Source: Bacteroidota bacterium
GTDB taxonomy: Bacteria > Bacteroidota > Bacteroidia > AKYH767-A > OLB10
Direction of reading: 5' to 3'
Length of the DNA stretch: 64,000 nt
Assembly: GCA_016714005.1 (NCBI GenBank)
Contig: JADJOA010000005.1
Location: forward strand, 167,031-231,030
The notes beneath the pieces are model-generated. The model made no database searches. It was not told the DNA's origin and saw only the letters and a program-made list of their open reading frames with translations. Made by a program: the position numbers and the translations under genes. This document shows, piece by piece, positions 2,815-55,645 of the stretch (positions are counted from its first letter, which is position 1; each line of letters opens with the position of its first letter).

Positions 2815-2859
2815 AAAAAGTTTTTAAAGCAATTATGTAATTATATAACCCTATAAGCC

Positions 2860-35204: not shown

Positions 35205-35229
35205 AACTCATCATTGATCATTACACTTA

Positions 35230-36096: not shown

Positions 36097-36190
36097 TTTT
36101 TGAAAGTATGATTTATGAATAATGAATAATGAGTTGGTTTGAGCGTGTAACCCTTTCAGAGCTTTAAAGGTCTTGAAGGTTTGTTTTGTT

Positions 36191-37395: not shown

Positions 37396-37423
37396 GTATT
37401 AAAAGAGAAAACACAATAATAAT

Positions 37424-38281
37424 TTATAACGGAACATATCCCACATCTGAAACCAACTTTTGACCTTCGGCTGATAGTATGTAATCAATAAAAGGCTTTA
37501 CCTTAGGTTCGGATGCTTTGGTGTAAAAGTAGTAGAGCGGACGAGAGATAGGGTAAGATTTGTTTTTTGCATTTTCTACCGATGGTGCTACAAAGGTTTT
37601 ACCATCATCGTAAGAAACTTCAAGGTGTTTAACATCTTTGGTTTCGTAAGCCAAACCCACATACCCAATAGCTCCTTCGGTTTGACTAACAGATTGTATG
37701 ATGGCTCCTGTTGCAGGCATGTTTAATACATCGGACGCATAATTTTTCTTGTCCATTACATGTTCTTTAAAGAATTCGTAAGTGCCGCTGCTGCTTTCGC
37801 GCGAGTAACAAATCACTTTTAAATCTTTGCCCCCTACTTCTTTCCAGTTTTTAATTTTTCCGGTAAACATATCGGCTATTTGCTTCTGCGTAAGTTTGCC
37901 AATAGCATTACCAGGGTTTACAACTACAGCTAACGCATCAAAACCTATTATTGATTCTACTACTTCTATTTTATTTTCTTCAAGCTTTAGTTTTTCATCC
38001 ATCTTTAAAGGGCGAGATGACATGGCAATGTCTGTAGCGCTTTCCATTAACGCAGAAATGCCCACGCCCGATCCGCCACCAACAACTGTAATGGATGCAT
38101 CAGGATGTTGTTTCATGTATGCTTCGGCTTCTTTTTGAGATAGCGGAAGTACGGTGTCGCTTCCTTTTATGGTTATGGAAGTTTTTGCAGAGGCTTCTGT
38201 ATTTTTAGTTTCCTGTTTGTTTGAATTGCTGCCGCACGCTGCAAGCAATAATGCTATTGGTAGTAATTTTAATTTGTTCAT
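37424..38281 (-). CDS. pstS: phosphate ABC transporter substrate-binding protein (PstS family), copy 1
   Basis: Lipoprotein signal LLPIALLLAAC. ITIKGSDTVLPLSQ, GGGSGVGISAL and KNWKEVGG motifs. Confidence 0.9.
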   Translation of the reverse strand: MNKLKLLPIALLLAACGSNSNKQETKNTEASAKTSITIKGSDTVLPLSQKEAEAYMKQHPDASITVVGGGSGVGISALMESATDIAMSSRPLKMDEKLKLEENKIEVVESIIGFDALAVVVNPGNAIGKLTQKQIADMFTGKIKNWKEVGGKDLKVICYSRESSSGTYEFFKEHVMDKKNYASDVLNMPATGAIIQSVSQTEGAIGYVGLAYETKDVKHLEVSYDDGKTFVAPSVENAKNKSYPISRPLYYFYTKASEPKVKPFIDYILSAEGQKLVSDVGYVPL

Positions 38282-38356
38282 ATTTGATATTGATATTGAA
38301 TTGTTACGAATTTATGAATGACTATAATTCTATTCATAACTCATCATTCCTGGTTT

Positions 38357-39181
38357 TTATTTTAATGTTATGTACCCTACCTTTTCTACCACTGCCTGTC
38401 CTTCGGCTGAAAGTACATAATCAACAAATGCTTTTACCGATTTTTCTTTTGCTGTTGGATAATAGTAAAACAAAGGGCGAACAATGGGGTATGTTTTATT
38501 TTTTGCGTTTTCTACTGATGCCATAGTGTATGTTTTTCCTTTATCATAACTTACTGCTATATCTTTAACAGACTTATCCATATAAGCAACTCCAATGTAA
38601 CCTATAGCGCCTTTTGTTTGTGAAACAGACTGTACAATGGCACCCGTAGCAGGCATATTAAGGCACGAACTTGCATAATTTTTTCTGTTTAACACGCTTT
38701 CTTTAAAAAACTCATACGTACCCGAACTTGTTTCGCGTGCATAAGCTATAATTTGCATATCAGAGCCACCTACTTCTTTCCAGTTTTTTATCTTACCTGT
38801 AAATATTCCTTCAATTTGTTCGCGAGTAAGTTTAGACACACCGTTTGATGGATTAACTACTACAGCCAATGCATCGTAAGCTACAATTACTTCTTTAACC
38901 GCTCTGCCTGCTTCTTGTAATTTTAACTTTTCATCCATTTTCATTTTACGACTGCTCATGGCAATATCTGTAGTTCCATCTATTAATGCTGATATGCCTA
39001 CACCGGAACCACCGCCAACAACGGTAACTGATGCCCCGCTGTTCTTTTTCATATATGTTTCGGCTTCTTTTTGCGAAAGCGGTAAAACCGTATCGCTGCC
39101 TTTAATGGTTATACGTGTTTGTGCATTGGCAAATATGCCTGCTGCAAGTAAACTTAGTGTTATTAAAATGTTCTTTTTCAT
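38357..39181 (-). CDS. pstS: phosphate ABC transporter substrate-binding protein (PstS family), copy 2
   Basis: Paralog of the preceding gene, highly similar by eye, with a signal peptide and the same motifs. Confidence 0.9.
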   Translation of the reverse strand: MKKNILITLSLLAAGIFANAQTRITIKGSDTVLPLSQKEAETYMKKNSGASVTVVGGGSGVGISALIDGTTDIAMSSRKMKMDEKLKLQEAGRAVKEVIVAYDALAVVVNPSNGVSKLTREQIEGIFTGKIKNWKEVGGSDMQIIAYARETSSGTYEFFKESVLNRKNYASSCLNMPATGAIVQSVSQTKGAIGYIGVAYMDKSVKDIAVSYDKGKTYTMASVENAKNKTYPIVRPLFYYYPTAKEKSVKAFVDYVLSAEGQAVVEKVGYITLK

Positions 39182-39297
39182 TTTATGTTTTTATTAATAA
39201 TTAATTGTTTTAATTGATGCTGTTGCAGGCTTTTTGATGAGGAAATCAAAATCAATTTGCCCGTTGGAATTCTGTCTTTAGCCTCTTTTAACTTTAA

Positions 39298-40706
39298 TTA
39301 AAATCTTATTTGAGTGCGAAGAGTAAATACATTGTCTTTTAAATCTTTGGTATAGCCGCTCAGGTTCTCGCTGGTTTCATTTTTAACCATATCATAATAT
39401 GCTGTTATGCGCACATTGGCATCCCACCTGTAAATAAGACCTAATCCAATGGTTTCGTATTTTAAATCGGTGGCATTAAATGCCCTTGCCGATGAATTGG
39501 CAACCTTTTTACCAATATCGTTTCCTTCTACATCGGTGTTTGGGTCATACCAATCGTATTTAACAACAACCTGCCATGGGGATTGCATAATGTTGTGAAG
39601 GAAATAAAAGTAAGCACCGTTAAAACTCCTTTTATAGATAGAGCTTGTGTTTGCTGCAGCAGGGCTTGCTGTTGAAGATGAAAAGCCCGGCTGATCGCCT
39701 TGTATATATTCACCTCTAATGGTAGTTAAACCGCCAATCCAATCAACACTTAACTGAACATCGGCACCTACGTATTTACGTTTGGCAGCTTTGCGTGTGG
39801 CAATACCTACGCTGTAGAAATCAGCCTTTTTGTTTTCAAAAACAAAACTTGTTAAGCCAAGCGAATCTTTACCAATTTTAAAAACATCTACGGTATCAAT
39901 TCTAAACCCGCCATCGTAAACAGATACACCACCACCATATCTTATTTTTTCGTTTGCAGTGTTTTTAGCAAAACTTAAGTGCCCGATAAAATCTTTGAAC
40001 TTATCAAAATCACTTGCATCCAAACCCGGGCCACGGCTCCGGTTCCATTAAAATATCCGGCCTCTAATTTCAACCAGTTCCATCTCGAAATTTTTGGTGC
40101 CTGCAAAGTAACCATACCACCTAAATCTCTCTCGCCCGGAAACAATATTTGCGACATACGACCACGCTCGGGAGATTCACGCAGGTTTGATGAGTACCCA
40201 ATCTCATAACCAAACGGGCGGTTTTGCATACCTGCTGTAAAGTTGAACCAACCACACCATGGATCCGTAAATTTTAAATATGCATCTTTAATAGTTAAAC
40301 CTTTTTCTGTTACATCAAACTGTAAAACATATTGCGATGTATTCCATCCTTTATCATTTAACTGAGAGTCGTACTGAAATTTAACACGACCTCTTCTTAC
40401 GGCAATCCTCTTATCTACCCCAGCAGGAAAATTTCCACCATTAAAAGACTGCTGACCAGATGAATCGGCATACTGAAACTGCGCCTGCAGGTAACCGCTA
40501 ACTTTAATACGTTTTAATAATTCCAGTTCCTGTCCGTATCTGCTAAGTGTAGATATGGTAGTGTCTGTGTTTTCCGGTTCGGTTACCTGCGCTTTTGCAG
40601 CATTAACCGATGCTACACCAAAGAGTAGTGCAATGGGTAAAATGTGTTTGAGTTTAAACATAGTTGCTCTGTTTTTTTTTGACACTGCAAAAGGATATAT
40701 AAGCAA
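39298..40706 (-). pseudogene. phosphate-selective porin O/P-like outer-membrane porin, frameshifted as read
   Basis: 39975-40706 carries a signal peptide and beta-strand pattern (VSGYLQAQFQY...). 39298-40023 ends in ...FTLRTQIRF. They join as ...GYFNGTGA..GPGLDASDFDKF... with an indel in the G/C run at about 40025-40045. Confidence 0.7.
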
Positions 40707-41550
40707 TTATGTGAATGTATTTTTAAGGTTAAATTAAGGTTAATAAGAGGGGGTTGTTAAAACATTGCAGTAACATAGGAGCAACAAAGAAAACCCAAAC
40801 TAACAACAAGTAGTAGCCGGAGCTACTGTTAAGGGTTAGGTTGTAAAAATATTTGATATAAGAATTTAATGCAGTTGTGCAGTTTTCTGCTTTTAAAGTG
40901 AGAAGCTACAAAACAAGACAAGGTTGCATGTGGTGTGTGAAAGGGTTTTGTATTTGGTTGAATAAGTGGGTTTAAAAACGATGTTTGTTTGGTTAGGCTG
41001 AACGATATTAAGAGCTTAACAATTACTGTTGCGTGTTAAAAGATTGATGTTGGTGCAGGACTTTTTATTGCTGAGGTTGATCAAATTGAATTATGGAGTT
41101 GAAAAAACAATGTTAGGGTGCGACTTAACAATGTTGAGGTTTGACTTGATGCGGGCATGGCTGAAAAAATGGCAGTGGCGGGTGGATTTATTGAGGGCAT
41201 GGATTTACTTGAAGGTATAAGGGTTTAAAAAGCAGAAGACGTGGGTGCAATTGCGGAGGACGATTTTTAAAAAACGAAGGAGGTGGATGGGTTTGTTGAT
41301 GACGTTGGTGGATTTAAGGGAATGGTGGGTTGAAAATGTGAGGGTGAGCAGGAACTATCTATTTGCTTTATTTTATTTGTTAACGATTGGTTTTTTGCAT
41401 TTTGCGAAGGAAATGCAGGGATGGAAACAGAGTTGGTATAATGCCTTGGTTAGTGAAAGGGCAACGCTTGTAAACAGGCAATATGTTTTAGATGTATTTG
41501 ATGGGATAGAGAATTTTAAATTTTGTCATTTGAAAAATGCAGTTGTGGAT

Positions 41551-41760
41551 TTAGGCTAACGGGGTGCTAATAGGTATTATACCCAGCAGGTGAAGGGCGG
41601 CCTGCCGGGTTGTGGGATGCATAAGGGAGCCGTTGTGGGTAAAAATATCTCTTACCTCATTGGGAGGAAAGCCATTGCCAAGGGGTTGCAAGATTTGCGC
41701 AGGGGCTATTTGAATAATAGCCACACAGATAAGCAGGAATATTTTTGCTTTTATGCGCAT
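41551..41760 (-). pseudogene. truncated third copy of the T9SS beta-propeller paralog family (only the first ~47 codons are retained)
   Basis: MRIKAKIFLLICVAIIQIAPAQILQPLGNGFPPNEVRDIFTHNGSLM matches the N-termini of 41769-43112 and 43121-44458. After that the sequence diverges into unrelated sequence and a stop. Confidence 0.75.
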
Positions 41761-41768
41761 TTTACCAT

Positions 41769-43112
41769 TTAGTTCTTGATGAACTGTTTGCTGATTTTAT
41801 TGCCCTTGGAAAAAACAGTGATGTAGTAGGTGCCCTTGGGAAGGGCTGCAATGGGTATGTTGATGGAGTTGGTTTTGATTGATTGCTGTTGTGAAAAAAG
41901 AAGCTGACCGAATAGGTTTGTAACCTCTGCTTTTTGAATGAATTGGTTTTGTGCGGTGAGTTTAACTGCAATTTGGGTTGAGGCAGGATTGGGGATGATG
42001 GTGAGGTGGTTCTGAGATGGTTTTAGTTCTGTGAGGTTGGTGGTGGTATCTATATAGGCGGCTATTCTGTTAACGGTTATGCCGCCTGCGGTATCGAAAC
42101 CGCCACCCACGATGAGCATGTTGTTGTACTCTAACAGGGCAGTAACACCTCCATCGGTACCAGTACCAAGATTTTTCCAATCTGTTCCATCAAAGTATGC
42201 AATGTTGTTTATGGTATCGCCAGCTAAGTTAACGGGTCGGTAGCTTGTACCTGCAACTATTTTACCTTTATACATTCCTAAACTTAAAGGATGCATGGCA
42301 GGACCACTGCCAACAGGAAACCATGTGCTGCCATCCCAATATGCAATATTAGATAAGCAATTATTGGCACTACCATTTACGCCACTAATATCTCCTACAT
42401 ACAAACGGTTATTAATGGAGTCAACTGCCATACAAACAACGTCACCGGTAGTGCCGCCACCTACCGGGCTCCATGTGGTGCCATTAAATTTTATTATGTT
42501 GTAAGCAGTTACGGTATCTATACTTGAAAAGTATCCGCCTACATACAGTTCGTTATTAAAAACTGCCATTGAAAATATTTGAGATAACCCACCTGATGTG
42601 CCAATACCGATGGGATGCCATGCTGTGCCATCCCACCGCGCAATGTCGCGCATGGGTTGGCTATCTACTGACAGGAAATTGCCTCCTATGTATATGCTGC
42701 CCTTGTAGCTTTTTAATGCAGCTACACTTCCATTAATTACTCCATAACCTAAGCTACTCCAATTAACGCCATTGTATTTTGCTACACCCTTACCATTAGA
42801 AATCCCAAACATGTTAAAAAAGATACCTCCTACATATAAGTCACCGTTAAGCGTATCGCTATCGTAAGCACCACCACCAAAAAAAAGCCCGTTAGAATAG
42901 GCTTGCCAACTGGTGCCGTTCCATTTTTGAATGTTTGTGTAGCTGCCGCTGGTTGCCATGTTTCCACTGACCATAAGGGAGCCGTTGTGGGTGAAAATAT
43001 CTCTTACCTCATTGGGAGGAAAGCCATTGCCAAGGGGTTGCCAGATTTGCGCAGGGGCTATTTGGGCAATGGTTAAGAAGATAAGTAGGAATATTTTTGC
43101 TTTTATGCGCAT
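41769..43112 (-). CDS. secreted beta-propeller-repeat protein with T9SS C-terminal sorting domain (paralog 1)
   Basis: 447 aa with a signal peptide, reiterated ...GG.F....G....NIA.WDG..W...G.G blades, and the CTD TIIPNPASTQIAVKL...LPKGTYYITVFSKGNKISKQFIKN. Confidence 0.75.
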   Translation of the reverse strand: MRIKAKIFLLIFLTIAQIAPAQIWQPLGNGFPPNEVRDIFTHNGSLMVSGNMATSGSYTNIQKWNGTSWQAYSNGLFFGGGAYDSDTLNGDLYVGGIFFNMFGISNGKGVAKYNGVNWSSLGYGVINGSVAALKSYKGSIYIGGNFLSVDSQPMRDIARWDGTAWHPIGIGTSGGLSQIFSMAVFNNELYVGGYFSSIDTVTAYNIIKFNGTTWSPVGGGTTGDVVCMAVDSINNRLYVGDISGVNGSANNCLSNIAYWDGSTWFPVGSGPAMHPLSLGMYKGKIVAGTSYRPVNLAGDTINNIAYFDGTDWKNLGTGTDGGVTALLEYNNMLIVGGGFDTAGGITVNRIAAYIDTTTNLTELKPSQNHLTIIPNPASTQIAVKLTAQNQFIQKAEVTNLFGQLLFSQQQSIKTNSINIPIAALPKGTYYITVFSKGNKISKQFIKN

Positions 43113-43120
43113 TTTACCAT

Positions 43121-44458
43121 TTAGTTCTTAATGAACTGTTTGCTGATTTTATTGCCATTGGAAAAAACAGTGATGTAGTAGGTGCCCTTGGGAAGGGCTG
43201 CAATGGGTATGTTGATGGAGTTGGTTTTGGTTGCTTGCTGTTGTGAAAAAAGAAGCTGACCGGAAAGGTTTGTAACCTCTGCTTTTTGAATGAACTGGTT
43301 TTGTGAGGACAGTTTAACTGTAATTTGGGTTGAGGCGGGGTTGGGTATGATGGTGAGGTGGTTCTGAGATGGGTTTAGTTCTGTGAGGTTGGTGGTGGTA
43401 TCTATGTATGCTGCTATTCTATTTGCAGGCATGCCTCCTGCGATATCGAAATAACCTCCTACTACTAACAGGTTATTGTATTGCATGAGTGCATAAACAG
43501 TGCTATTTACTCCGCTGCCAAGGTTTTTCCAGTCTGTCCCATCAAAGTATGCGATATGATTAATTGTATCGCCCGCTAAGTTTACTGGGCGATAACCAGT
43601 GCCTGCAACTATTTTGCCTTTATACATGCCTAAACTCAAAGGGTGCATTTCGGGTACTGTACCAACCGCAAACCAGTTACTGCCATCCCAATATCCGACT
43701 TTGGATGGACAATTATTGGCAACACCATTAAAGCCATAAATACCTCCAACATATAGTCTGTTATTAATGGTATCTACAGCCATGCATCTTACATCACCGG
43801 TAGTGCCTCCTCCTACCGGACTCCATGTGGTGCCATTAAATTTTATAATGTTATAAGCTGTTACGGTATCTATGCTTGAAAAATAGCCGCCCACATACAG
43901 TTCGTTATTAAAAACTGCCATACAAAATATTTGTGATAAGCCGCCTGATGTGCCTACTCCAATAGGATGCCATGTGGTGCCATCCCACCGGGCAATGTCT
44001 CGCATGGGTTGGCTATCTACTGACAGGAAATTGCCTCCTATGTATATATTGCCCTTGTAGCTTTTTAATGCAGCTACATCTCCATCAGTTACACCATAAC
44101 CTAAGTTGTTCCAATTTGCTCCATCGTATTTTGCTACTGCTCTGGCATTAGGAATGCCAAACATGTTGATAAACCTTCCTCCTGCATATAAATCACCGTT
44201 AAGCGTATCGCTATCGTAAGCACCAGCACCAAAAAAAAGTCCGTTGGTATATGCTTGCCAACTGCTGCCGTTCCATTGCTGAATACTTCCATAAATACCA
44301 CTGGTAGCCATATTGCCACTGACCATAAGGGAGCCGTTGTGGGTGAAAATATCTCTTACCTCATTGGGAGGAAAGCCATTGCCAAGGGGTTGCCAAATTT
44401 GAGCAGGGGCTATTTGGGCAATGGTTAAGAAGATAAGCTGGAATATTGTTGCTTTCAT
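43121..44458 (-). CDS. secreted beta-propeller-repeat protein with T9SS C-terminal sorting domain (paralog 2)
   Basis: 445 aa. It is highly similar along its full length to 41769-43112 and separated from it by only 8 nt. Confidence 0.75.
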   Translation of the reverse strand: MKATIFQLIFLTIAQIAPAQIWQPLGNGFPPNEVRDIFTHNGSLMVSGNMATSGIYGSIQQWNGSSWQAYTNGLFFGAGAYDSDTLNGDLYAGGRFINMFGIPNARAVAKYDGANWNNLGYGVTDGDVAALKSYKGNIYIGGNFLSVDSQPMRDIARWDGTTWHPIGVGTSGGLSQIFCMAVFNNELYVGGYFSSIDTVTAYNIIKFNGTTWSPVGGGTTGDVRCMAVDTINNRLYVGGIYGFNGVANNCPSKVGYWDGSNWFAVGTVPEMHPLSLGMYKGKIVAGTGYRPVNLAGDTINHIAYFDGTDWKNLGSGVNSTVYALMQYNNLLVVGGYFDIAGGMPANRIAAYIDTTTNLTELNPSQNHLTIIPNPASTQITVKLSSQNQFIQKAEVTNLSGQLLFSQQQATKTNSINIPIAALPKGTYYITVFSNGNKISKQFIKN

Positions 44459-44480
44459 AAATGCTAAATTAAAATAAATA

Positions 44481-44514
44481 AAAGAGGTTAGTGAAAACGC
44501 AGACTAACCTCTTT
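44481..44514. terminator. terminator-like hairpin
   Basis: AAAGAGGTTAGT-gaaaacgcag-ACTAACCTCTTT with T-rich tails on both strands. It lies between the paralog array and RAYT-derived element A. Confidence 0.5.
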
Positions 44515-44568
44515 TTATTTTAGTATGAGATAAAAGCAATATTTAGCACAATACCTGTTAATACCTCA

Positions 44569-44852
44569 CTGCACTCGTCCTTGTCTGAAGCAAAGCCTTG
44601 TGCGCTGTGAGGAGGATGTAAAGCTTCCGAAAGATAAAATTATTTTTGCCATAGTATATTAAAAATTATGTCGGGCGACAGATATTTTATCAGATATTAA
44701 AACCCCGGTTGAGCAAGGCGTAGTGTTTTATGAAAAGGATTATCTTTATAGCTCTGCTAAAGAGTACAGTGATGAAAAGGGGTTGGTTAGAATTTCGTTG
44801 TTAAAGGATGTGCAGGCATCCTCGTCTCTACACACTTGCAAGGACGAGAGGG
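44569..44852 (+). mobile_element. RAYT-derived non-autonomous element, copy A (REP-like hairpin + 3' remnant of a Y1 transposase gene + shortened right hairpin)
   Basis: About 90% identical by eye to 46461-46757 and 54684-54980. The internal frame reads ...DIKTPVEQGVVFYEKDYLYSSAKEYSDEKGLVRISLL, like the conserved C-terminus (NPV.aG.V....dY.YSSa.dY) of REP-associated tyrosine transposases. The right end lacks the CGCGTCAGACGA segment. Confidence 0.7.
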
Positions 44853-44894
44853 AAATTAGTGGTAGACAAAAGGGAATGAACAAAGAGTTCTAAA

Positions 44895-46393
44895 TTACTC
44901 CTTGATAATCTTGACATTTGCTTGCATTTCTCCCCACTGCAATTTGCATAAATAAATACCCTTTGAAAGCCCAGTTAAATTAACCTGTTTAAACTGGCTC
45001 CGGGTGCAATTAATTCCTCTCCAACCTTATCTCCAGTTATGTTATAAATTAACAGTGTGCCTTCTGTTTTTTGAACAGGAAACTGGAGTGTTGTTGTATT
45101 CTTTGAAGGATTGGGAGATGCGCGTGCTGAAATTTTTATTGGGATATAATCTTCCAAGTCTGTAAGACATCCGCAACCCAAAGTTGAATCGCATCCTAAA
45201 AAATAATTAGGATGGTTAGGAATTCCATTAACATACCAATTTTGAAGTTGAATTCCATGTTGAATGAAATCACATGCAACTCCTAAACTGTCTGGATAAT
45301 TAATTACATGTAAATGGAACGTACTATTTCCTGTTTGAATATAAATCTTACCATCAGGAGCAAGTTGCATTCCCTCAAAACCAGTAGAAAACGGAGGAGA
45401 GGGTGAATAAAAACTATCCCATACTGCAACAGTCATCTGAGATGCTGCAATATTTGCGCTTGTCATGTCATACTGATAAGCTGTATAGATATTTGCCGCA
45501 TACAAAAATCTTGAATTAGGAGAAAATGCAGCCCCACCTAGAAAGGAAGTGGCTTGAGGCAGAACAATATGGATATCATTTGTAAGCAGTCCGGTACATC
45601 TGTCAAAATCAAAAATATCCAATGCGCCCACAGACTGATACTCTGCATGAATAACTGCAAATTTTCTACCGTCAGGAGAGAAAACAGACATTCCACCTAT
45701 TTGCGGTCTTACCACCCCAATATTCTGAAGATATGGTCCAAGAATATTGTTATTGGATAATACTAAGTACTTATAAAAAAGATTGCTGTTAGCTTGTTGA
45801 ACAATGACCCACCAATCTCGTCCGTTTGCATGTTTACATGCTGTTATATTGCCTGCTATTAATGTATCTTGCAATATCACCACATTCTTGCTTGTAACAG
45901 CACCCTTTCCACCATTTAAGTTCATATCAATTACACTGTAGTAGAAATTCAAAGCTCGATTATAGTTAGGGGCATTATCCACCGTGCTATGAAATAAGTA
46001 ATACAAATGAGAGCTACCTGGTTGGGGAAGGGCTAAGCATGCCTGTGGAACAGTTAACCCTGAAGGTGAAGAAAGATTAAATCCAGTGGGGCTTATTGTA
46101 TTGCCATTTTGCATCGTATCTCCTGTAACGTCTGCAATGTAATATCCATTCGTATAAAACAAAATATTTCCATTTGTATCTGAAATATTTGCTGAAGTCC
46201 TATTGATATCCATTTCAAGACTATCGTAGGTAATTGTGGGGGCTCCACTATTAAAATCCATTAATGTGTGACCATAAGCAGCACCCCAATAACTTCCGTA
46301 TCCCAATATCCAATTTGTATTAACACCAGTTGTCTGGCTATGAGTTAGGATATAACAATTACAGAATAGGAATATAAAATGCCATTTTTTCAT
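44895..46393 (-). pseudogene. secreted protein with T9SS C-terminal sorting domain, frameshifted in the CTD as read
   Basis: The 472-aa ORF has a signal peptide (WHFIFLFCNCYILTHSQ). The CTD begins ASPNPSKNTTTLQFPV...LLIYNITGDKV. A shift near 45000 continues FKQVNLTGLSKGIYLCKLQWGEMQANVKIIKE* with its stop at 44895-44897. Confidence 0.65.
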
Positions 46394-46460
46394 TGACTAA
46401 AAATTGACATTCAAATATAGTATTTATTCCAATTTTACATTATCTAACAATGCTCAATTT

Positions 46461-46757
46461 CTGCACTCGTCCTTGTCTGAAGCAAAGCCTTGTGCGCTGT
46501 GACGAGGATGTAAAGCTTCCGAAAGATAAAATTATTTTTGCCATAGTATTTTAAAAATTATTTGGGGCAATAGATATTTTATTAAAGATTAAAACCCAGG
46601 TAGAGCAAGGGATAGTTTTTTATGAAAAGGATTATCTTTATAGCTCTGCTAAAGATTACAGTGAAGAAAAAGGATTGGTTAGAATTTTGTTGTTATAGGA
46701 TGTGCAGGCATCCTCGTCTCTACACACTTGCAACGCGTCAGACGAGGACGAGAGGGG
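46461..46757 (+). mobile_element. RAYT-derived non-autonomous element, copy B (complete)
   Basis: The left end is CTGCACTCGTCCTTGTCTGAAGCAAAGCCTTGTGCGCTGTGACGAGGATG. The remnant ORF reads LFGAIDILLKIKTQVEQGIVFYEKDYLYSSAKDYSEEKGLVRILLL*. The right end is GCATCCTCGTCTCTACACACTTGCAACGCGTCAGACGAGGACGAGAGG. The terminal inverted repeat is CTCGTCCTTGTCTGA / TCAGACGAGGACGAG. Confidence 0.75.
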
Positions 46758-46789
46758 TTTGTACTTTGTCATTTATTTAAAATACAATT

Positions 46790-48093
46790 ATGGAGAAATT
46801 TTTTGACAGATTCAGGTTGTTGCAGGAAAAGGAAGATCATCCTATTTTAATTGAAAATATTACGAATGGCGTTTCTTTCAGAGGTACAAACCTGTGGGTT
46901 TTGATTTTTGCAATATTTATTGCTTCCCTGGGATTAAACGTAAATTCAACAGCCGTAATCATTGGTGCAATGCTGATTTCTCCTCTTATGGGTCCTATCA
47001 TGGGCTTAGGGCTTGCGCTGGGGATTAATGACCTTGTTTTGTTGCGGAAGTCGCTGTCAAATTTCGGATATGCCGTGATGGTGAGTTTGGCAACTTCTAC
47101 TTTTTATTTTTTGCTTACGCCATTAAGCGATGCACACTCAGAATTGCTTGCCCGAACCTATCCGACAATTTATGATGTGCTGATTGCTTTTTTTGGCGGG
47201 CTTGCAGGTATTGTAGCTACATCAAGCAAGCTTAAAGGCAATATAATACCAGGTGTGGCAATTGCAACAGCGCTGATGCCGCCACTGTGTACAGCGGGTT
47301 ATGGGTTGGCAACTTTGCATTGGAATTATTTTTTTGGTGCATTTTATTTGTTTCTTATCAATTCAGTTTTTATTGCTGCGGCTACTTTGCTTACAGTGCG
47401 ACTTCTCAAAATTCCGCATAAACATTTGCCTGATGCAAGGGCGGAAGCAAGAGCTAAAAGAATAATTATAACTGTTCTGATTGTAACGCTTGCACCAAGC
47501 TTATATTTAGGATATGATATTGTTCAGCAGGACCGCTTTACGAAAAATGCAAACCGTTTTGTAGATGTTGCCTGTGTGCTGCCGAATGATTATTTGCTGA
47601 ATAAAAAAATTGATGCAAAAACAAATCAATTATTCTGACTTATGGCGGTGATGAGATTACCGAAAAAGAAATAAATGCTTTGAAAAGCAAACTGGGAGGT
47701 TTTAATTTGAAAGGCACATCGCTTCAAATAAAACAAGGCTTTTCCTATTTGACCGATAATACTGAAAACAATAATCAGCTGAATGAACTAAGCAAGGCAT
47801 TGGTTGATAAGGAATCGGAAATAAGCAGGTTAAAGTTGAAACTTGACAGCATGACTACTAAGAATAAAATCGGGATGCAATTATTTTCAGAATTAAAAAT
47901 AAGTTATCCTGATTTAAAAGACATCATTATAAATGAATCAACCACCCTAATTGATACATCTTCTGTAAAACAAACCATTTTTTTAGCTGTGCTGGATTTT
48001 AAAAAGCCTGTTTCAAGTAAAGAAAAAATTAAAATTGAAGAATGGCTGAAGGTGAGACTGAAGGAAAATAAAATAAAAGTTATATTTGAATGA
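46790..48093 (+). pseudogene. DUF389 / TIGR00341-family membrane protein, frameshifted as read
   Basis: 46790-47638 carries the DUF389 hallmark GAMLISPLMGPIMGLGLALG and several TM helices. 47680-48093 is the soluble C-terminal domain in another frame. The shift is near 47625-47640. Confidence 0.7.
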
Positions 48094-48122
48094 GCGCTCA
48101 TGCAATTTATCTTATGAAATAA

Positions 48123-49901
48123 ATGACCTTAGAAATTGGAATTGTTTTAGTCATCATTGTGCTGACACTGTATTTATTTATCAGTGAAAAATTCGGGATA
48201 GATACTATATCTATAATCGTTATGGTTTTATTAATGGTTACAGGCATATTAACACCGCATGAAGGATTTGCAGGCTTTACTAACTCCGCTACAATTACAG
48301 TGGCTTGCATGTTTGTGGTAAGTGCTGCTATTTATAAATCAGGTGCACTTAGTGGTGTAGGCAATATATTAAAAACGCTTGGCAAGAAAAGCTATATCGT
48401 TACGCTTATAGTTCTTATGCTGCTTTCAGGCTCGCTTTCTGCTTTTATGAACGATACTGCTGTAGTTGCGCTTTTAATGCCGGTTGTAATAAATGTTGCA
48501 CAAAAAACTAAAATTAATCCTTCCAAATTATTGATGCCACTTTCGTTTGGAGCATTGCTTGGAGGAATCTGTACACTCATCGGCACTTCCACCAATATTT
48601 TAGTGAGCGGAATTGCTGAAAGACAGGGATTGGCTCCAATTAGTATGTTTGAAATGGCGCCTGTCGGATTATGCTTTATGGCAGTGGGAATTTTATATAT
48701 GCTTATTGTTGGTAACCGTTTGCTCCCTGACCGGAAGCAAAAAGAAAATCTGGCTGAGGAATTTGAGGTATCAAAATATATTACAGAAATTATTTTATTG
48801 CCGGAGGCAAAGTATGTAGGTACAACAATAAAAGATTAACCAATTGTAAAGAATCGTGACATAATAATAATAAAGATAACGAGTAAAAAAATACCTATGA
48901 TTCATTTGCCCGGCCTCGTTCTGGAAGCACATGATATTTTAAAAGTGAGCTGTGATATTGACAAACTGAAAATGCTGATGGAGCGCGAAGGAATTAGGTT
49001 CACCTCAGATAAAGGCGTGAAAAATGAATCTGTTTCATTGGGAAATGTCAGTCTTGTAGAAGCAATTGTGACAGTTAATTCCGAGATGGAAAACCAATCA
49101 TTCAAGGAGTATAATTTCAGAACACGGTTTGAAGGAGCAACTGTTTTAGCGGTAAGACACCGGAATGAAATATTGCATGAAAAGTTAGGCAGAGTCAAAT
49201 TAAAATCAGGCGATGTATTGCTTATCTCTGCCACTAAAGAACAGATAGCTGCATTAAAAAGCGCAGATGATTTGCTGATTATTTCTGAAACTGAACATCA
49301 CCCTTTCAATTTGTTAAATTCAGCTTCTATAATTTCAATTGTTGCCGGCATCGTTATAACAGCGGCTTTAGGAATAGCCCCCATTGTGCTGAGCGCAACT
49401 GTTGGAGTGGTTTTGCTTATTGTATTAAAATTTTTAAAAACCGAAGAAGCGTACCGGGCAATTGATTGGAAAGTTGTTTTTATGTTAGCGGGTGTTCTGT
49501 CACTTGGCGCTGCTCTCGAAAAAACAGGTGCTGCTACCTTGCTTGCTGATGGAATTATAAACACTATTGGTGCGTATGGTCCTAAAGCTGTACTGTCTGC
49601 TTTTTTCGGGTTAACATTTCTTTCAACTAATTTTATGTCAAACAATGCCACTGCTGCTTTGCTTGCTCCCATAGCGATTGTTACTGCCAGCGAAATGGGA
49701 ATTGATGCCCGCCCGCTTATCCTGGCAGTGGCATTTGCTGCTTCGCTTAGTTTTATGACACCAATGGGCTATCAAACCAATGCCATGATTTATGCGCCCG
49801 GTAATTATAAGTTTAAAGATTATCTGCGTGTTGGCACTCCTTTAAATATTTTGTTCTGGATTTTGGCTTCTATCATTATACCGTACTTTTTTCCATTTTG
49901 A
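48123..49901 (+). pseudogene. SLC13/DASS-family permease with central TrkA-C domains, interrupted by an in-frame TAA
   Basis: 48123-48839 and 48897-49901 are in the same frame (both coordinates are divisible by 3). The single TAA at 48837-48839 (GAT TAA CCA) interrupts ...GTTIKD*PIVKNRDIIIIKI... The permease TM repeats flank two TrkA-C-like segments. Confidence 0.75.
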
Positions 49902-49949
49902 TTTTTATAGCATTGTAATTTGAGAGAACTAATCGTTAAAATAATTAAA

Positions 49950-50796
49950 ATGAAGGAACTTTTAAAATCAGAAATTATTTCAACTGGAAATTATACCATG
50001 ACCGCAGGTAATTTATTGGTAGCAGTTATAATTTTTGTTGGTACTTATTTTTTAATAAGAATAATTGCTGCATTAATCACCCGTACATTTAAAAGAAGAA
50101 ACAGACCTGACGGAAGGCATTTTTCCATCATTCAGCTTGTAAAATATTTTATATGGACACTGGCTTTTGTTTTTATTCTGCAAACATTAGGGTTTAACAT
50201 TACTTTTCTTATAGCAAGCTCAGCTGCATTATTGGTTGGAATCGGCTTAGGGCTTCAGAATGTTTTTAAAGATTTTATTTCAGGTATTACCTTGCTCATC
50301 GAAGGCACTATAAAAGTGGATGATATTGTAGAGGTGGACGGGTTGGTTGTAAAAGTTAATGAAATAGCGCTTCGTACATCAAAAGTTACCACAAGAGAGG
50401 ATAATGTGGTGATAATTCCGAACCACAAGTTTATAGAGGAAAAGATTGTAAACTGGACAAATAATATGCTGCCTTCGAGGTTTATGATTGAAGTGGGTGT
50501 GGATTATTCTTCGGATGCAATGCTGGTAGAAAAGATTTTAATTGAATGCGCCACACTGCATAAGGATGTGCTGAAAGAAAAGGAGTATATTGCTACTGTG
50601 AGATTAAAAAGACTTTGGAAAATCTTCTTTGGACTTTCAACTGATATTTTACAGTTATAATTTATTCAGGATTGAAAATGTGAAAAGCAAAATACGGTTT
50701 GAAATTCTTGAAGCTTTCAGAAAAAATAATATTGTGATTCCTTTTCCACAGCATGTTATTCACTATGCCAATAAGGAGCAGGACAAAAGCATATAA
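49950..50796 (+). pseudogene. MscS-family mechanosensitive ion channel, frameshifted near the 3' end as read
   Basis: I prefer the ATG at 49950. The MscS core reads FKDFISGITLLIEGTIKVDDIVEVDGLVVKVNEIALRTSKVTTREDNVVIIPN. The C-terminus continues in another frame (...DFGKSSLDFQLIFYSYNLFRIENVKSKIRFEILEAFRKNNIVIPFPQHVIH...) to the stop at 50794-50796. Confidence 0.8.
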
Positions 50797-50809
50797 CTGA
50801 ATTTGAGGA

Positions 50810-51526
50810 ATGATTAGCAAAGAAAGAATTAAGCGTGCCCTGAACCGTTTTCATTTTTATTCGGGAATCCGGATTGATTCCTTGCCCGAAAATGAACTGG
50901 AAATATTTAATAAACATGCTAAAAAAATAAATTTAAAAAAGAAGAAAGTACTATTCAGGCAAGGCAGTTATCCTAATGGAGTTTATATTCTGAAAAGCGG
51001 GAAACTAAAAGTTTATCAGTTAAATTATGATGGTTCTATTCAGATACTTTTTATTTATGCTGCCGGAGAAGTATTTGGCTACCGCCCTATCCTGAGTAAT
51101 GAATATCAGCCGGTGAGCATTGCTGCACTGGAAGATTGCGAGTTGCTTTTTATTGAAAGAAAATTTTTTCTTGAATTGCTTCAAAAATCACTTACTCTTT
51201 CCAATCAGTTGCTCGTGAGTTTGAGCCATGAGTTTACCGTTCTTACAAATCGGATTAATGTTTTTGCACAACGCGGGATTAAAGAACGGTTTGCGCTTGC
51301 TTTGCTTATTTTAAATGAAAAATATAAATCGGAAAGTGATATGGACGGTTTTGCAGAAATAAAATTGGCACGAACAGACCTTTCCAACTTTGTAGGCACT
51401 TCTCTTGAAAATCTGAGCCGCACCTTAAATTATTTCAAAGAAAAAAGACTTATTCGCACTAAAGGAAAAAGTATTTTTATTGAACACTTTGAAAATCTTT
51501 TTATTCTTTCAGCAATTGATAGCTGA
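50810..51526 (+). CDS. Crp/Fnr-family transcriptional regulator
   Basis: 238 aa with a cNMP-binding domain (VLFRQGSYPNGVYILKSGKLKVY...GEVFGY) and a C-terminal HTH (RTDLSNFVGTSLENLSRTLNYF). Confidence 0.85.
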   Translation: MISKERIKRALNRFHFYSGIRIDSLPENELEIFNKHAKKINLKKKKVLFRQGSYPNGVYILKSGKLKVYQLNYDGSIQILFIYAAGEVFGYRPILSNEYQPVSIAALEDCELLFIERKFFLELLQKSLTLSNQLLVSLSHEFTVLTNRINVFAQRGIKERFALALLILNEKYKSESDMDGFAEIKLARTDLSNFVGTSLENLSRTLNYFKEKRLIRTKGKSIFIEHFENLFILSAIDS

Positions 51527-51650
51527 GTTTTTGATCTATTTTCATAGTTTGACTTAAGTCAAATTTATCTTCTGCATACCACTTTACTTTTGTAAATATG
51601 ATTTAGCAATCCTTGCTTTTTCAATCAATTATTTAAAAAAAGAATACACT

Positions 51651-53256
51651 ATGAATAAGACAGAAAATAACAGCATTCTAAAAAAAATTAAACTAAGAAA
51701 AACTTGAAGACAGAGACTATGAAGATATTGTACTACTTCAGTTAAAATGTTTTCCTGAAATGAAGCCCTGGAAACGTGAGCAGTTTGAGAACATTTTAAA
51801 AGTGTTTCAGGAAGGACAAATTTGTGTAGAATATAACGGTGAAATTATTGCTTCCTCGTGCTCATTAATTATTGACAGCAATAAGTATTCGGAAACTTCA
51901 AGCTGGCATGAGCTTACCGGAAACGGTTTCATTAATAATCATGAATCTGATGGTGATACATTGTACGGAATGGAAATAATGGTTGACCCGGAATACCGCA
52001 ATATGAAACTTGCACGGAGAATGTATGACTGGAGAAAACGATTTGCAGTAACTAAAAATTTGAAGCGAATTGCTGCGGGTGGAAGAGTTCCTAATTACTG
52101 CAAGCATCAGAAAAAAATGACCGTGTATGAATATGTAGAAGCTGTAACAGATAAAAAAATATTTGACCCTGTGCTTACCACTCAGCTTGCCAATGGTTTT
52201 TCGCTGATAAAGGTGTTGCCTGATTATTTGCCAAATGATAAGGAGTCGTGTGGTTATGCTACCTATCTTGAATGGACGAATTTCCAATACCGGACTGATA
52301 AGGAAAGAATCAGTTCGAGATATGTTCGCGTTGCGGCTGTACAATATCAAATGCGGACTAGAAAGGATTTTGACGAGTTTGCTTCGCATTGTGAATATTT
52401 TGTGGATGTAGCTTCTGATTACCGGAGTGATTTTGTAATGTTTCCTGAGATGCTCACGATGCAATTGCTTTCATTTATGCCTACTGAACGCCCGGAACAA
52501 TCAGCAAGAAGGTTAAGCGAATTTACTTCACGGTATATAGAGTTCTTTAACCATCTCGCAATTAAATACAACATCAATATAATTGGCGGTTCGCACCTGA
52601 ATGTGGAGAACGATTCACTTTACAATGTAGCTTATTTATTCCGTAGGGACGGAACAATAGGAAAGCAATATAAAATTCAGATTACACCTCATGAAAAAAA
52701 ATGGTGGGGAGTGAAAGGCGGCAACAAGATTGAAGTATTTGATACCGATTGTGGAAAGATTGCAATTGCTATTTGTTATGATGTTCAATTTCCTGAGCTT
52801 GTCCGCATAGCTGCTGTAAAGGGTGCGCAAATACTTTTTGTTCCGTATAATACAGATGAACGCAGAGGTTATTTAAGGGTACGGTACTGTGCACAGGCAC
52901 GAGCAATAGAAAATCAAATGTATGTTGCTATTACAGGATGCGTTGGTAATTTGCCTAAAGTAGAAAACTTAGATATTCATTTTTCACAATCTGCCATATT
53001 TACTCCATCGGATGTTGAATTTTCGAGAGAAGGAATTGCTACGGAAGCAACTCCTAATACTGAGACAATAATTTACCAGGATTTGGATTTACGGTTATTA
53101 AAACGAAACCGTGAGTATGGAACAGTGCAGCCGTGGAACGATATAAGGAATGATTTGTATGAAGTAATTCAAAAGCATAATGAATCAATTGTTCCCACTC
53201 AGCATCAAAATGGAAATGCAAAGGTTGAAAAACAGATTAGTATAATAAATCAATAA
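51651..53256 (+). pseudogene. bifunctional GNAT N-acetyltransferase / carbon-nitrogen hydrolase (nitrilase superfamily), frameshifted near the 5' end as read
   Basis: The 498-aa ORF has a GNAT region (YGMEIMVDPEYRNMKLARRMY) and a CN-hydrolase region (RVAAVQYQM..., FPEM, KIAIAICYDVQFPE with the catalytic Cys). The N-terminus MNKTENNSILKKIKLRK(L)EDRDYEDIVLLQLKCFPE (ATG at 51651) joins after an indel in the A-run at about 51705. Confidence 0.8.
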
Positions 53257-53267
53257 AAAATATTCAA

Positions 53268-54117
53268 ATGAAAAATAATAAAACAAAAATCATTCTTGTT
53301 CCTACAGATTTTTCGGAAACCGCTAACAAAGCTTTAGCAAAAGCAATAGACTTATCGAAAAGAACCAATGATAAATTGGTTTTGGTGCATGTGGTGGAAA
53401 CAAATATGTTTTTAGCTCCGGTTGAAATGATGGCAGTGGGATACATAAATGAAGTAATGGTAAGGGATTCGAAAGAAAGCCTGCGGGAAACTGTCAGAAG
53501 AAATAAAGGATGAACATGAAATCAATGTAGAATATGCCTGTTATTCAGGCAACGTATATGATAACATTATCCGTGCATCGCATTTATTTGATGCAGATTT
53601 AATAGTAATGGGAACTCATGGCACGTCAGGTGTTTCGGAGTGGTTGTTTGGAAGCAATGCTTTTAGTGTTGTAAATAATACAACCATTCCTGTTTTAACT
53701 ATCAACTTTCATTCTGATTCAAATACGTTTAAAAAAATTGTTTTTCCTTTTAATGAAAATTTGCTGACACTAAAAAAAGCAGAACAGGTTATTGCACTTG
53801 CAAAAATATTTAACGCTTCTATTTTGATTTTTGGATATACTGACAGTAAAATGACATCGGCATTAACAGTGCTTCGTAAAAAAGGTGAAGAACTTGCCAG
53901 GCAGTTTAAGGATGAAAATATTGAAAGCACTTTTACTATGAGCCTGGGTGAAGATTATGCAGATGAAATTTTGGAGTTTGCCAATGGAGAAAAAGCAGAT
54001 TTGATTACGGTTATTACAAACAGAAGTCATAATGTTGACAAAGTTTTTAAAACAAAACCGGATAAGAAATTGGTGAATCATTCTGAAATTCCGGTGCTGA
54101 GTGTACCGGTGGGGTAG
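53268..54117 (+). pseudogene. tandem-domain universal stress protein (UspA family), frameshifted as read
   Basis: KIILVPTDFSETANKAL... and ...DLIVMGTHGTSGVSEWLFGSNAFSVV (the Usp ATP-binding G-2x-G-9x-GS motif), plus a second Usp domain ending HSEIPVLSVP. The shift is near 53495. Confidence 0.8.
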
Positions 54118-54193
54118 CGGATAGTTTAACTTAATATTGCTTTGCTTGTTAACCAAACATTAAAATATACAAAGCAGCACCTGCAAAGTAATT

Positions 54194-54242
54194 CCCTCGT
54201 CCTCGTCTTACGCGGTGCAAGTGTGTTGAGACGAGGCGAGAG
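54194..54242 (-). repeat. solo REP-like hairpin (right-end type of the RAYT-derived element, inverted orientation)
   Basis: CCCTCGTCCTCGTCTTACGCGGTGCAAGTGTGTTGAGACGAGGCGAGAG matches the reverse complement of the right end of copies B and C. It has an 8-bp stem CCTCGTCT/AGACGAGG. Confidence 0.65.
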
Positions 54243-54683
54243 AAAGAAGGATTCTATTTAGGCAACCTTACAGGGGGCGCTATCACACAAGCCGCGTGTG
54301 CGACTTGTCAGGTGAAATTACAAGCAAAATTTTAGTTATGAAATTGAAAATTGGTTTTAGTTTTTTCTTTATTCCACTTTTAGTTCGTTAGCTTTTTAAT
54401 TTGATTTTAGCAACTCATGAATGCTGAAGGGCATTTGTCTTGAAACAAAAGTGGAGCAAAAATTCAAGCCAAATTGCCAACCTTCAATTGATTTTTCGCA
54501 CTTGCCTTTGCATCTAATGCCAATCAATTGAGTAGCGGCTTACAGTCACGTAGTTTGCTAAAAAGTCCACCGGACTTTTTATTGACGCAACCTCGTGCAC
54601 CATTTTCAAAAGCCCTCGCACTCGGAAAGTGTTTTGACATTAGCGAATTTTCTGGGGCATTGTTTCGAACACTTATGTTTTCA

Positions 54684-54980
54684 CTGTACTCGTCCTTGTC
54701 TGAAGCAAATCCTTGTTCGCTGTGACGAGGATGTAAAGCTTCCGAAAGATAAAATTATTTTTGCCATTGTATTTTAAAAATTATTTAGGGCAATAGATAT
54801 TTTATTAAAGATTAAAACTCCGGTTGAGCAAGGCTTAGTGTTTTATGTAAAGGATTATCTTTATAGCTCAGCAAAAGACTATAGTGAAGAAAAAGGGTTG
54901 GTTAGAATTTCGTTGTTATAGGATGTGCAGGCATCCTCGTCTTTACACACTTGCAACGCGTAAGACGAGGACGAGAGGGG
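54684..54980 (+). mobile_element. RAYT-derived non-autonomous element, copy C (complete)
   Basis: It aligns end-to-end with copy B and carries the same remnant ORF (...VEQGLVFYVKDYLYSSAKDYSEEKGLVRISLL) and the same termini. Confidence 0.75.
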
Positions 54981-55375
54981 GATTGATTTTTATTTCCTTA
55001 TTTCTTTTCTGCACGAGTTGTGATTATTATGATAACAGACTTTCCATAATAAACAATAGTAATGCAGATATTGCAGTTGAAACTTATCTAGACAGCATTC
55101 CTACCATTGAAGAATCTAATAGTTCGGCTTATTACCTTCGTGAAATTGTCAAAAAGCAAGGAACTTCATCATTAACAATGCCAGGAAGTACTCAAGCTTG
55201 GATTTTTTTTATCGAAAGAAGTAAAAACAAAAAATTGAACATTTGTGTTTTTAATAAAGATACAATAATAAAATACGGAGAAATTGATTCATTAATTAAT
55301 AAAAACCTTTATAAAAAATATATTATAAGTAAATCATATTTAGACAGTACGCAATGGATAGTTCAAATAAATTAG
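54923..55375 (+). CDS. hypothetical lipoprotein whose 5' end lies inside RAYT-derived element C
   Basis: The ORF is open from 54884 (GTG), with an in-frame ATG at 54923 inside the element, giving MCRHPRLYTLATRKTRTRGG-LIFISLFLFCTSC-DYYDN... The hydrophobic core and Cys lie just outside the element (after 54980). The start codon is uncertain; a TTG at about 54981 is an alternative. Confidence 0.45.
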   Translation: MCRHPRLYTLATRKTRTRGGLIFISLFLFCTSCDYYDNRLSIINNSNADIAVETYLDSIPTIEESNSSAYYLREIVKKQGTSSLTMPGSTQAWIFFIERSKNKKLNICVFNKDTIIKYGEIDSLINKNLYKKYIISKSYLDSTQWIVQIN

Positions 55376-55588
55376 TTTTTAGGGCTTAAGAATGATTGAA
55401 TAAAAATTATGAGATTACATAGAATTTTCGTCAAAAGTGTTGCTGTATTCAATGTATTCCTGCAGCCAACCACTTTCAATATTAAAATTTATTATCCTCT
55501 TTTGTTCTTTATTGACGTCTTTATCATATAAACTCAGTGCACCAAATCTGGAATCTAAGGTGTCCTTTTTCTGATCAACTTTATTTTT

Positions 55589-55645
55589 CTGCACTCGTCC
55601 TTGTCTGAAGCAAAGCCTTGTGCGCTGTGACGAGAATGAGTGCAG
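55589..55645 (+). repeat. solo REP-like hairpin (left-end type of the RAYT-derived element)
   Basis: CTGCACTCGTCCTTGTCTGAAGCAAAGCCTTGTGCGCTGTGACGAGAATGAGTGCAG. The first 46 nt are identical to the left end of copy B. The sequence closes on itself through CTGCACTCGTC / GACGAG(aatgag)TGCAG. Confidence 0.7.

Follow-up and report, generated by a model that had tools for sequence, protein, structure and literature searches.

Multi-copy repeats of about 297 bp in a Bacteroidota genome as probable RAYT genes with an internal deletion and both REP flanks retained

Three direct copies of a repeat of about 297 nt and two solo hairpins were found in an 11-kb portion of the window, which is the whole 64-kb stretch analysed here, belonging to contig JADJOA010000005.1 of a Bacteroidota bacterium. 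Each repeat is, with a probability that we put at about 0.8, a non-autonomous deletion derivative of a REPtron, that is, of a gene for a REP-associated tyrosine transposase (RAYT) placed between inverted repetitive extragenic palindromic (REP) hairpins, in this case of subclass 2.6. An earlier note, made from the sequence alone, had proposed that these repeats were internally deleted RAYT genes with both REP flanks kept. This proposal is supported by the profile and hidden Markov model (HMM) searches, by the MSGDRY start and the position of the stop codon, and by the layout of the flanks in relatives. The host is a Bacteroidia bacterium known from metagenome-assembled genomes (MAGs), with proteins secreted by the type IX secretion system (T9SS) as well as a G+C content of about 37%.

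The repeat family and its hairpins

Repeat search and MAFFT alignment placed the three copies, all in the same orientation, at 44569-44852 (A), 46461-46757 (B) and 54684-54980 (C) on the forward strand; the repeat-search span of copy A ran from 44569 to 44865, but the element itself ends at 44852. With copy B, in the middle, taken as the reference, the other two copies were 87% and 93% identical to it, in agreement with the identity of roughly 90% over about 290 bp that the note had estimated by eye. When the copies were aligned together with 30 bp of flanking DNA, similarity started at CTG(C/T)A and stopped at GACGAGAGGG in the three of them, and the flanks were unrelated. The possibility that the copies are part of a larger segmental duplication was therefore rejected and its probability is practically nil, even though the neighbouring genes at 41769-43112 and 43121-44458 are a tandem duplicate. 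A longer duplicated segment was one of the two outcomes that the note had named as contrary to its proposal, and the copies proved to be discrete.

The 27-mer of the left end occurred four times in the window, always on the forward strand (44574, 46466, 54689 and 55594), and the 36-mer of the right end three times, at 46712 (+), 54935 (+) and 54201 (-). Neither of them was present in any of 100 shuffled sequences. These positions, together with the absence from the shuffles, locate the two solo hairpins where they had been noted. The left-type one, at 55589-55645 (+; hairpin 55589-55638), has an extended palindrome, CTGCACTC...GAGTGCAG, and the right-type one lies inverted at 54196-54236 (-), forming with the right end of copy C (54935-54975) a 41-nt inverted repeat with 93% complementarity. 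The window has eight REP-type hairpins, six in elements A-C and two solo, all of them within 44.5-55.7 kb. No further family member was identified in the remaining 53 kb by BLAST with copy B or by gapped and mismatch pattern scans, and Rfam and tRNA scans of the window gave nothing.

The imperfect inverted termini (left CTCGTCCTTGTCTGA, right TCAGACGAGGACGAG), the right-end stem (CCTCGTCT-20 nt-AGACGAGG) and the internal 10-bp inverted pair (GACGAGGATG / CATCCTCGTC) had all been correctly described in the note. The folding check that it had proposed was clear for the whole element, which folds with both ends paired together at -37.6 kcal/mol (z = -3.6, none of 200 shuffles being as good). The single hairpins, with stems of 8-10 bp and unusually large loops of 20-23 nt, gave modest energies (z from -0.3 to -4.8).

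The 440 bp that separate the solo right hairpin from copy C (54243-54683) contain no open reading frame (ORF) longer than 65 aa and no match to the RAYT HMM or to Rfam. They hold a terminator-like hairpin, aaaagtccaccggacttttt, at about 54563-54582, and together with copy C they are enclosed by the 41-nt inverted repeat 54196-54236 / 54935-54975.

Anatomy of the element and of the deletion

The order of parts in the element is 5' REP, a 49-nt leader, 12 N-terminal RAYT codons, one extra base, 33 C-terminal codons with the stop, and an inverted 3' REP. In copy B, the conserved CTGCA (46461-46465) is followed by the left REP hairpin (46466-46510; stem TCCTTGTC/GACGAGGA, 23-nt loop) and by the leader (46511-46559), which is the former 5' untranslated region of the RAYT gene and contains TATTTTTG. 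The N-terminal remnant (46560-46595) reads ATT TGG GGC AAT AGA TAT TTT ATT AAA GAT TAA AAC, its start codon having been lost, and the single extra base at the junction (46596) throws the C-terminal part into the +1 frame. This part comprises 33 codons plus TAG (46597-46698), and the inverted right REP hairpin (46709-46752; stem CCTCGTCT/AGACGAGG) has a 20-nt loop of a different type and precedes the end of the element at 46757. Copy A is the sole one with the RAYT ATG. Its N-terminal remnant of 12 codons (44668-44703) is ATG TCG GGC GAC AGA TAT TTT ATC AGA TAT TAA AAC (MSGDRYFIRY*N), its 33 C-terminal codons (44705-44803) read PVEQGVVFYEKDYLYSSAKEYSDEKGLVRISLL, and its right hairpin is 12 bp short. 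In copy C the N-terminal remnant spans 54783-54818, the C-terminal remnant with its stop 54820-54921 and the right REP 54932-54975. The C-terminal frame, ...PVEQG(I/V/L)VFYEKDYLYSSAKDYSEEKGLVRI(S/L)LL, runs into a stop codon in copies B and C, while that of copy A is now AAG.

The N-terminal piece corresponds to MSGDRYFIKDQN, and a single deletion of about 417 bp has taken away RAYT residues 13-151, and with them the HUH motif and the catalytic tyrosine. The residues H61, H63 and Y147, invariant in the alignment of full-length RAYTs, all fall within the deleted stretch. The HUH motif (NH[LIV]H in subclass 2.6) is absent from the element, in which the six-frame HMM matches span only model positions 148-182. 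From the catalytic tyrosine motif, YIH[QN]NP, Y147 and H149 are missing and the remnant picks up at P152. The C-terminal tail NPVxxGxVxxxxDYxYSSA is present and homologous to that of RAYT family members. No intact transposase gene lies between the REPs, only 12 and 33 codons mutually out of frame, with the start lost in two of the three copies. The flanks have the arrangement of a REPtron, with inverted hairpins on both sides of the gene ends, the left REP 49 nt before the former start and the right REP 10 nt after the stop. An asparagine codon (AAC/AAT) stands on both sides of the deletion (N12 and N151), and judging from the sequence this possible microhomology could underlie it.

Global alignment with low gap-extension cost against the parents scattered into small blocks, and the start-codon block and a 69-nt 3' block were the only reliable ones. 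One argument of the earlier note did not hold. The stretch (A)IDILLKIKT, upstream of PVEQG, had been read in the RAYT frame, with IKT one substitution away from IKN. This reading was rejected because the stretch is MSGDRYFIKDQN, the N-terminus of RAYT, in a frame shifted by one base, and the resemblance is consequently a coincidence, although the conclusion that it supported is still correct.

Homology of the remnant with RAYT genes

An exhaustive comparison of the remnant profile with 1.84 billion representative proteins gave 146 matches. The full-length ones, P0010, P0070, P0095 and P0106 (176-186 aa), belong to Pfam Y1_Tnp, and the remnant aligns to their extreme C-terminus (...YIHxNPVxxGIVxxxxDYLYSSAxDYxGxKGL...). 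Scanning of species-representative genomes identified 80 loci, all from Bacteroidota, about 45 of which had full-length genes of 176-186 aa. The HMM built from 45 full-length Bacteroidota RAYTs matched the three window remnants with E-values from 4e-12 to 5e-11 at model positions 148-182, and nothing else in the window. The note had also regarded the lack of any Y1 or RAYT homolog aligning with the remnant frame as contrary to its proposal; such homologs were found in relatives.

The best match in the PDB of a profile of 18 full-length members was the Escherichia coli TnpA_REP structure 4ER8 (E = 1e-5), with the NPV...SS tail included in the alignment, whereas the IS200 and ISDra2 transposases reached only about 2e-3. 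A PDB sequence search with the single RAYT sequence of L062 gave no matches, and no subclass 2.6 enzyme was present among the solved structures that the profile search retrieved. The size and motifs of the parent family (NHxH, WQ, YIH[NQK]NP and the SS tail) fit TnpA_REP subclass 2.6, whose members are about 179 aa long, carry the motifs NH[LIV]H, WQ and YIH[QN]NP, are found in Bacteroidetes and have on either side unusual secondary structures that recur elsewhere in the genome (PMC6006769).

The RAYTs of a Chitinophagaceae MAG (L062) and of a Ferruginibacter MAG (L049) start with MSGDRYPITDQN, and the element with MSGDRYFI(K/R)DQN; at the nucleotide level, 16 of 17 positions of the start region of copy A match the L062 and L049 start. 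At the other end, the 33 C-terminal codons are colinear with L062 residues 152-184 and the stop is at the homologous position. In the truncated copy of a relative strain the piece is GDRYFIRDQN and still has its CAA codon. The remnant peptides (43-65 aa) had no match in Pfam or NCBIfam, because the fragment is outside the core of the Y1_Tnp model and too short.

REP flanks in full-length relatives

Among the 35 full-length Bacteroidota RAYT loci with enough flanking DNA, about 20 were bracketed by an inverted repeat of 20-40 bp. Its arms are GC-rich hairpins, located 30-90 bp before the ATG and 2-50 bp past the stop. Like the window element, the L062 and L049 loci are framed by CTCGTCC...GGATGTAA at the left REP and by CATCC...GGACGAGAG at the right one. 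Furthermore, the 8-bp REP stems are homologous and differ by three compensatory pair changes, being TCCTCGTC/GACGAGGA in the window, TACTCGTC/GACGAGTA in a sibling element (L096, below) and TCCCGGTC/GACCGGGA in L062 and L049. These compensatory changes argue that the hairpin is the selected feature. The main difference between the REPs is the loop, of 3 nt in L062 versus 20-23 nt in the window. The tails of the L062 and L049 RAYTs are only about 55-60% identical to that of the element, and Chitinophagaceae is a different family from that of the host.

Multiplication of the deleted form

Window copies A, B and C have one and the same junction and stray base, as do the copies, both full and truncated, of the relative strain (L001, sampled also as L004 and L088-L091) and a further copy, L005. 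In addition, most copies share a CAA-to-TAA change. Since the junction and the frameshifting base are common to all copies, the unit that multiplied was already deleted. The L005 copy (contig Ga0493731_003421) is 89% identical over positions 1-226 and adjoins rotamase and response-regulator genes unrelated to the window; it has three synonymous changes in common with copy C, which point to sub-lineages. The idea that L006, at 68% identity, was an older ortholog of L005 was dropped, as it is the same locus with its identity lowered by masked N bases.

The process was not confined to this family. A 724-bp metagenome scaffold (L096) holds a sibling element with related REPs and a different deletion, in which YIHKNPV is kept and the N-terminal piece is absent. 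The Prevotellaceae MAG JACJXK01 has at least four copies, 92-98% identical, of an element of about 370 bp on three contigs (L025, L028, L030 and L039; about 2770-3140 in each locus). This is a REP-flanked RAYT without its N-terminal half, covering HMM positions 93-182 and lacking the HUH motif. An 87-aa in-frame mini-RAYT (P0008) was also identified. The sibling element and the Prevotellaceae family show that the process recurs.

In the usual description, RAYT genes are domesticated, single-copy and immobile, and it is only their short REP or REPIN satellites that move (PMC8266576, PMC6006769). The multi-copy element keeps both gene ends between two REPs, an indication that the whole REP-gene-REP unit was copied in this lineage, which suggests that gene and hairpins can be copied together. 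Copying most probably takes the route known for Y1 enzymes. The REP hairpins, folded on single-stranded DNA, would be recognised by a RAYT acting in trans, which would cut next to them and transfer or duplicate what lies in between, with no target-site duplication. The copies would then decay by deletion, giving solo hairpins and truncated left ends.

It could also be considered that a single REPtron decayed in place and that its copies were produced without any transposase, by local duplication, unequal crossing-over or homologous recombination in a hypervariable region. The confinement of all eight REPs to 11 kb, with none in the other 53 kb, would agree with such an immobile relic, as would the same clustering at the syntenic site of the relative, the adjacent tandem T9SS paralogs, which indicate that the region duplicates locally, and the failure to find either an empty site or a parent gene. 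However, there is no similarity among the flanks of copies A, B and C, the L005 copy stands beside unrelated genes on another contig, the L096 sibling is in a third context, and the Prevotellaceae mini-elements are multi-copy and on different contigs. We therefore regard this explanation as unlikely.

In the L096 scaffold the element (227-529) also lacks the leader. It immediately follows about 27 codons from the beginning of a response-regulator-like ORF and may therefore be an insertion into a gene. In the full copy of the relative strain (L001 9985-10281), the loop of the right hairpin is of the left type, which makes the 45-bp ends symmetrical; in the window copies this loop is distinct and of the right type. 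The frame of the relative's full copy stays open over 73 codons and has been called as a protein (P0001 cluster, 'hypothetical protein'). At L001 15662-16110, three left ends are piled up in direct orientation. They are a degenerate left REP that has its leader, a truncated copy that stops at element position 135 and, 3 bp further on, a solo left hairpin. The truncated copy ends within 2 nt of the deletion junction and has the Q11 codon intact.

Divergence between copies, parent gene and empty sites

Several results weigh against reading the repeats as mobilised deletion derivatives of a REPtron. The first is the way in which the copies differ. Between copies, the C-terminal remnant had a summed pN/pS of 0.23 in the RAYT frame versus 1.05 and 1.47 in the other two frames, and the substitution events were distributed 4:3:14 over codon positions (chi-square p = 0.005; binomial p = 0.002). 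In the comparison with the L096 element, whose deletion is independent, pN/pS was about 0.2 and the position counts ranged from about 4:4:13 to 3:4:16. Such a third-position bias is not expected of an element that has long been dead and drifts neutrally. It is unlikely to come from mutation bias, because relaxation in an AT-rich genome should, if anything, load the first and second positions. According to the simplest reading of these sequences, much of the divergence would have been acquired inside working RAYT genes, the elements having been seeded from them or converted against them. If so, this would be indirect support for a recent functional parent.

That parent is the second point. Neither the window, nor L001 or L005, nor the scanned collections yielded a full-length RAYT carrying these REPs. 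The closest full-length matches were only 43-70% identical over the tail, without any close relative in the species-representative genomes. Two word-index protein searches yielded two candidates and one candidate and missed even P0003, so that their silence says nothing about the existence of a parent.

Thirdly, the visible copy number is low and local, as judged from the 64 kb and pieces of the relative's contig. Eight REPs occur within 11 kb of the window, the 21-mer of the left end was found in a single contig of the metagenome collection, and an exact 21-mer scan of species-representative genomes gave no matches. Fourthly, no empty site or presence/absence polymorphism was seen, the other contigs of the species having the L001 arrangement or being broken at the repeat. 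The DUF389 neighbour of copy B, used as a probe for an empty site, is a protein not on record, and the search with the 210-aa flank protein retrieved only contigs ending at the solo hairpin. Four independent short-read assemblies (Logan contigs L092-L095) end 68 bp past the 210-aa gene, at the solo left hairpin, and it is the repeat, or strain heterogeneity at that point, that breaks them. Finally, neither a conserved target sequence nor a target-site duplication flanks the copies (TCA/AAA, TTT/TTT and TCA/ATT). The lack of duplication is what single-strand transposition by a Y1 enzyme predicts; it fits that route without proving it.

The coding-like differences (pN/pS 0.23, positions 4:3:14) could be accounted for in another way, in which full-length REPtrons diverged under selection at these sites and the autonomous genes were what moved, the deletion allele being later spread by gene conversion or arising repeatedly by slippage at the AAC microhomology of N12 and N151. 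The truncated copy of the relative, ending within 2 nt of the junction, and the existence of deletion derivatives with other junctions are in line with this. However, a common junction, a common stray base and, mostly, a common CAA-to-TAA change are most simply explained by one deleted ancestor, and no full-length copy survives at the sites examined. As with the immobile relic, the chances of this explanation are small.

It might also be that the host has taken over the element, which would then serve the neighbouring genes through a promoter or an RNA hairpin, or would encode a small peptide from the RAYT tail; translation could account for the third-position bias. The leader and the left REP are the best conserved part of the element, and TATTTTTG in the leader resembles the Bacteroidetes -7 promoter box, from which a promoter might be read, on the sequence only. 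In addition, copy B ends 33 bp before the DUF389 gene (46790), and in the relative the P0001 frame is open for 73 codons. Nevertheless, the contrast in conservation between regions is weak (p = 0.04-0.10), the neighbouring genes have no consistent orientation or distance, and Rfam gave no match. Translation of the tail is made less likely by the stop codon that the window copies have 12 codons upstream of the remnant and by the lack of a conserved start in frame. A takeover by the host thus appears very improbable.

Comparison with known systems

The element falls among the known kinds REPtron, REPIN and miniature inverted-repeat transposable element (MITE), and it is not a new kind. With the REPtrons of TnpA_REP subclass 2.6 (RAYT 'group 5'; Quentin et al. 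2018, PMC6006769) it shares a parent family of about 179-185 aa with the same motifs and a C-terminal SS tail, and it keeps both flanking structures, the leader and both gene ends. Unlike them, it lacks the gene centre and can encode no enzyme, and the deleted unit is multi-copy. The class 2 tnpA_REP genes have been described without evidence of mobility (PMC6006769, PMC8266576).

As in REPINs (Bertels and Rainey 2011, PMC3116915; PMC3337134), two inverted REPs pair their ends into one long hairpin, which the whole-element fold reproduces, and the unit is non-autonomous and thought to depend on a RAYT, with solo REPs as decay products. In contrast, the spacer of the window element is not short and anonymous but consists of about 200 bp of RAYT leader and coding sequence, and the loops have 20-23 nt. 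The ends carry CTCGTCC and no GTAG tag, and the known copies are a handful and local, not hundreds and dispersed. The origin of REPINs from the sequences flanking an ancestral transposase has been proposed and is still open (PMC3337134). In its form, the element described here is intermediate between a transposon of the IS200 type and a REPIN.

Further parallels are the MITEs that arose by internal deletion of insertion sequences and the palindrome-associated transposable elements (PATEs), which derive from IS200/IS605. Like these, the window element is small, without a transposase, retains both ends of its parent and is multi-copy; it is short and non-coding, with terminal inverted repeats, several copies and unrelated flanks, as in a MITE. 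The differences from MITEs are the absence of a target-site duplication, the hairpin ends, which would be read as single-stranded DNA and not as double-stranded repeats bound by a DDE enzyme, and the parent, a RAYT-type gene of a kind generally held to be domesticated and immobile.

The concentration of REPs in one neighbourhood resembles the REP clusters of Marinomonas sp. MWYL1 (Corneloup et al. 2021, PMC8266576), where local clustering has been reported for REPtrons regarded as recent arrivals (PMC8266576). However, an intact tnpA_REP lies within the cluster in that strain and none within the 64 kb of the window. The CTCGTCC preceding the hairpin contains CGTC, as does the tag of the CGTC-tagged REPs (Di Nocera et al. 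2013, PMC3733652), a class reported in Bacteroidetes without a known dedicated transposase (PMC3733652). Those families have 8-9-bp stems starting with A-T and loops of 4-5 nt, whereas the stems in the window are GC-rich and the loops 20-23 nt long, and the resemblance of the tags is only a lead.

Subclass 2.6 is poorly studied, and the element offers defined left and right substrates for an enzyme. On the practical side, elements of this type yield spurious small ORFs (P0001-P0004), break assemblies and mark a strain-variable region.

Strain-variable region and neighbouring genes

The window and the relative strain are 94-99% identical at window positions 35175-44741 and again from 55592 onwards. 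Between them, window 44742-55591 and L001 8258-16063 have only the element copies in common. The left breakpoint is inside copy A, at element position 173, and the right breakpoint at the solo left hairpin. The space between copies A and B is occupied by a 472-aa protein in the window and by a 560-aa T9SS protein in the relative, which are unrelated (E = 0.59). After copy B, the window cargo is a cassette for transport and stress with DUF389, a split CitMHS transporter, MscS, Crp, GNAT-nitrilase and Usp genes, and in the relative it is an AAA_16 protein of 1472 aa. All borders of strain-specific segments in 44.7-55.6 kb fall within an element copy or next to one, and recombination between or at the copies probably exchanges the intervening DNA. 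The elements may cause this exchange or may instead accumulate in a tolerant region. PADLOC identified no defence genes in the variable cassettes, and GC skew gave no usable replication direction.

A broader possibility, to which we give little credence, is that Bacteroidota REPtrons are live mobile modules, and not domesticated genes in single copy, whose gutted derivatives would be re-seeded from, or corrected against, working RAYTs, and that arrays of REP pairs in the same orientation would be points of cassette exchange between strains. Such re-seeding or correction would explain the third-position bias. In a more speculative form of this idea, the retained C-terminal tail might be translated and modulate the transposase.

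Some other features of the neighbourhood were observed. Two ORFs, 48123-48839 and 48897-49901, make up the CitMHS-family transporter, which has a TrkA_C domain and whose gene may be frameshifted or interrupted. The tandem T9SS paralogs (41620-44458; Por_Secre_tail, DUF6087-like beta-propeller) are 86-94% identical, with a period of 1352 bp, and the relative strain has one copy only. Between the second T9SS gene and copy A there is a strong terminator-like hairpin, aaaagaggttagt...actaacctcttttt, at 44487-44517.

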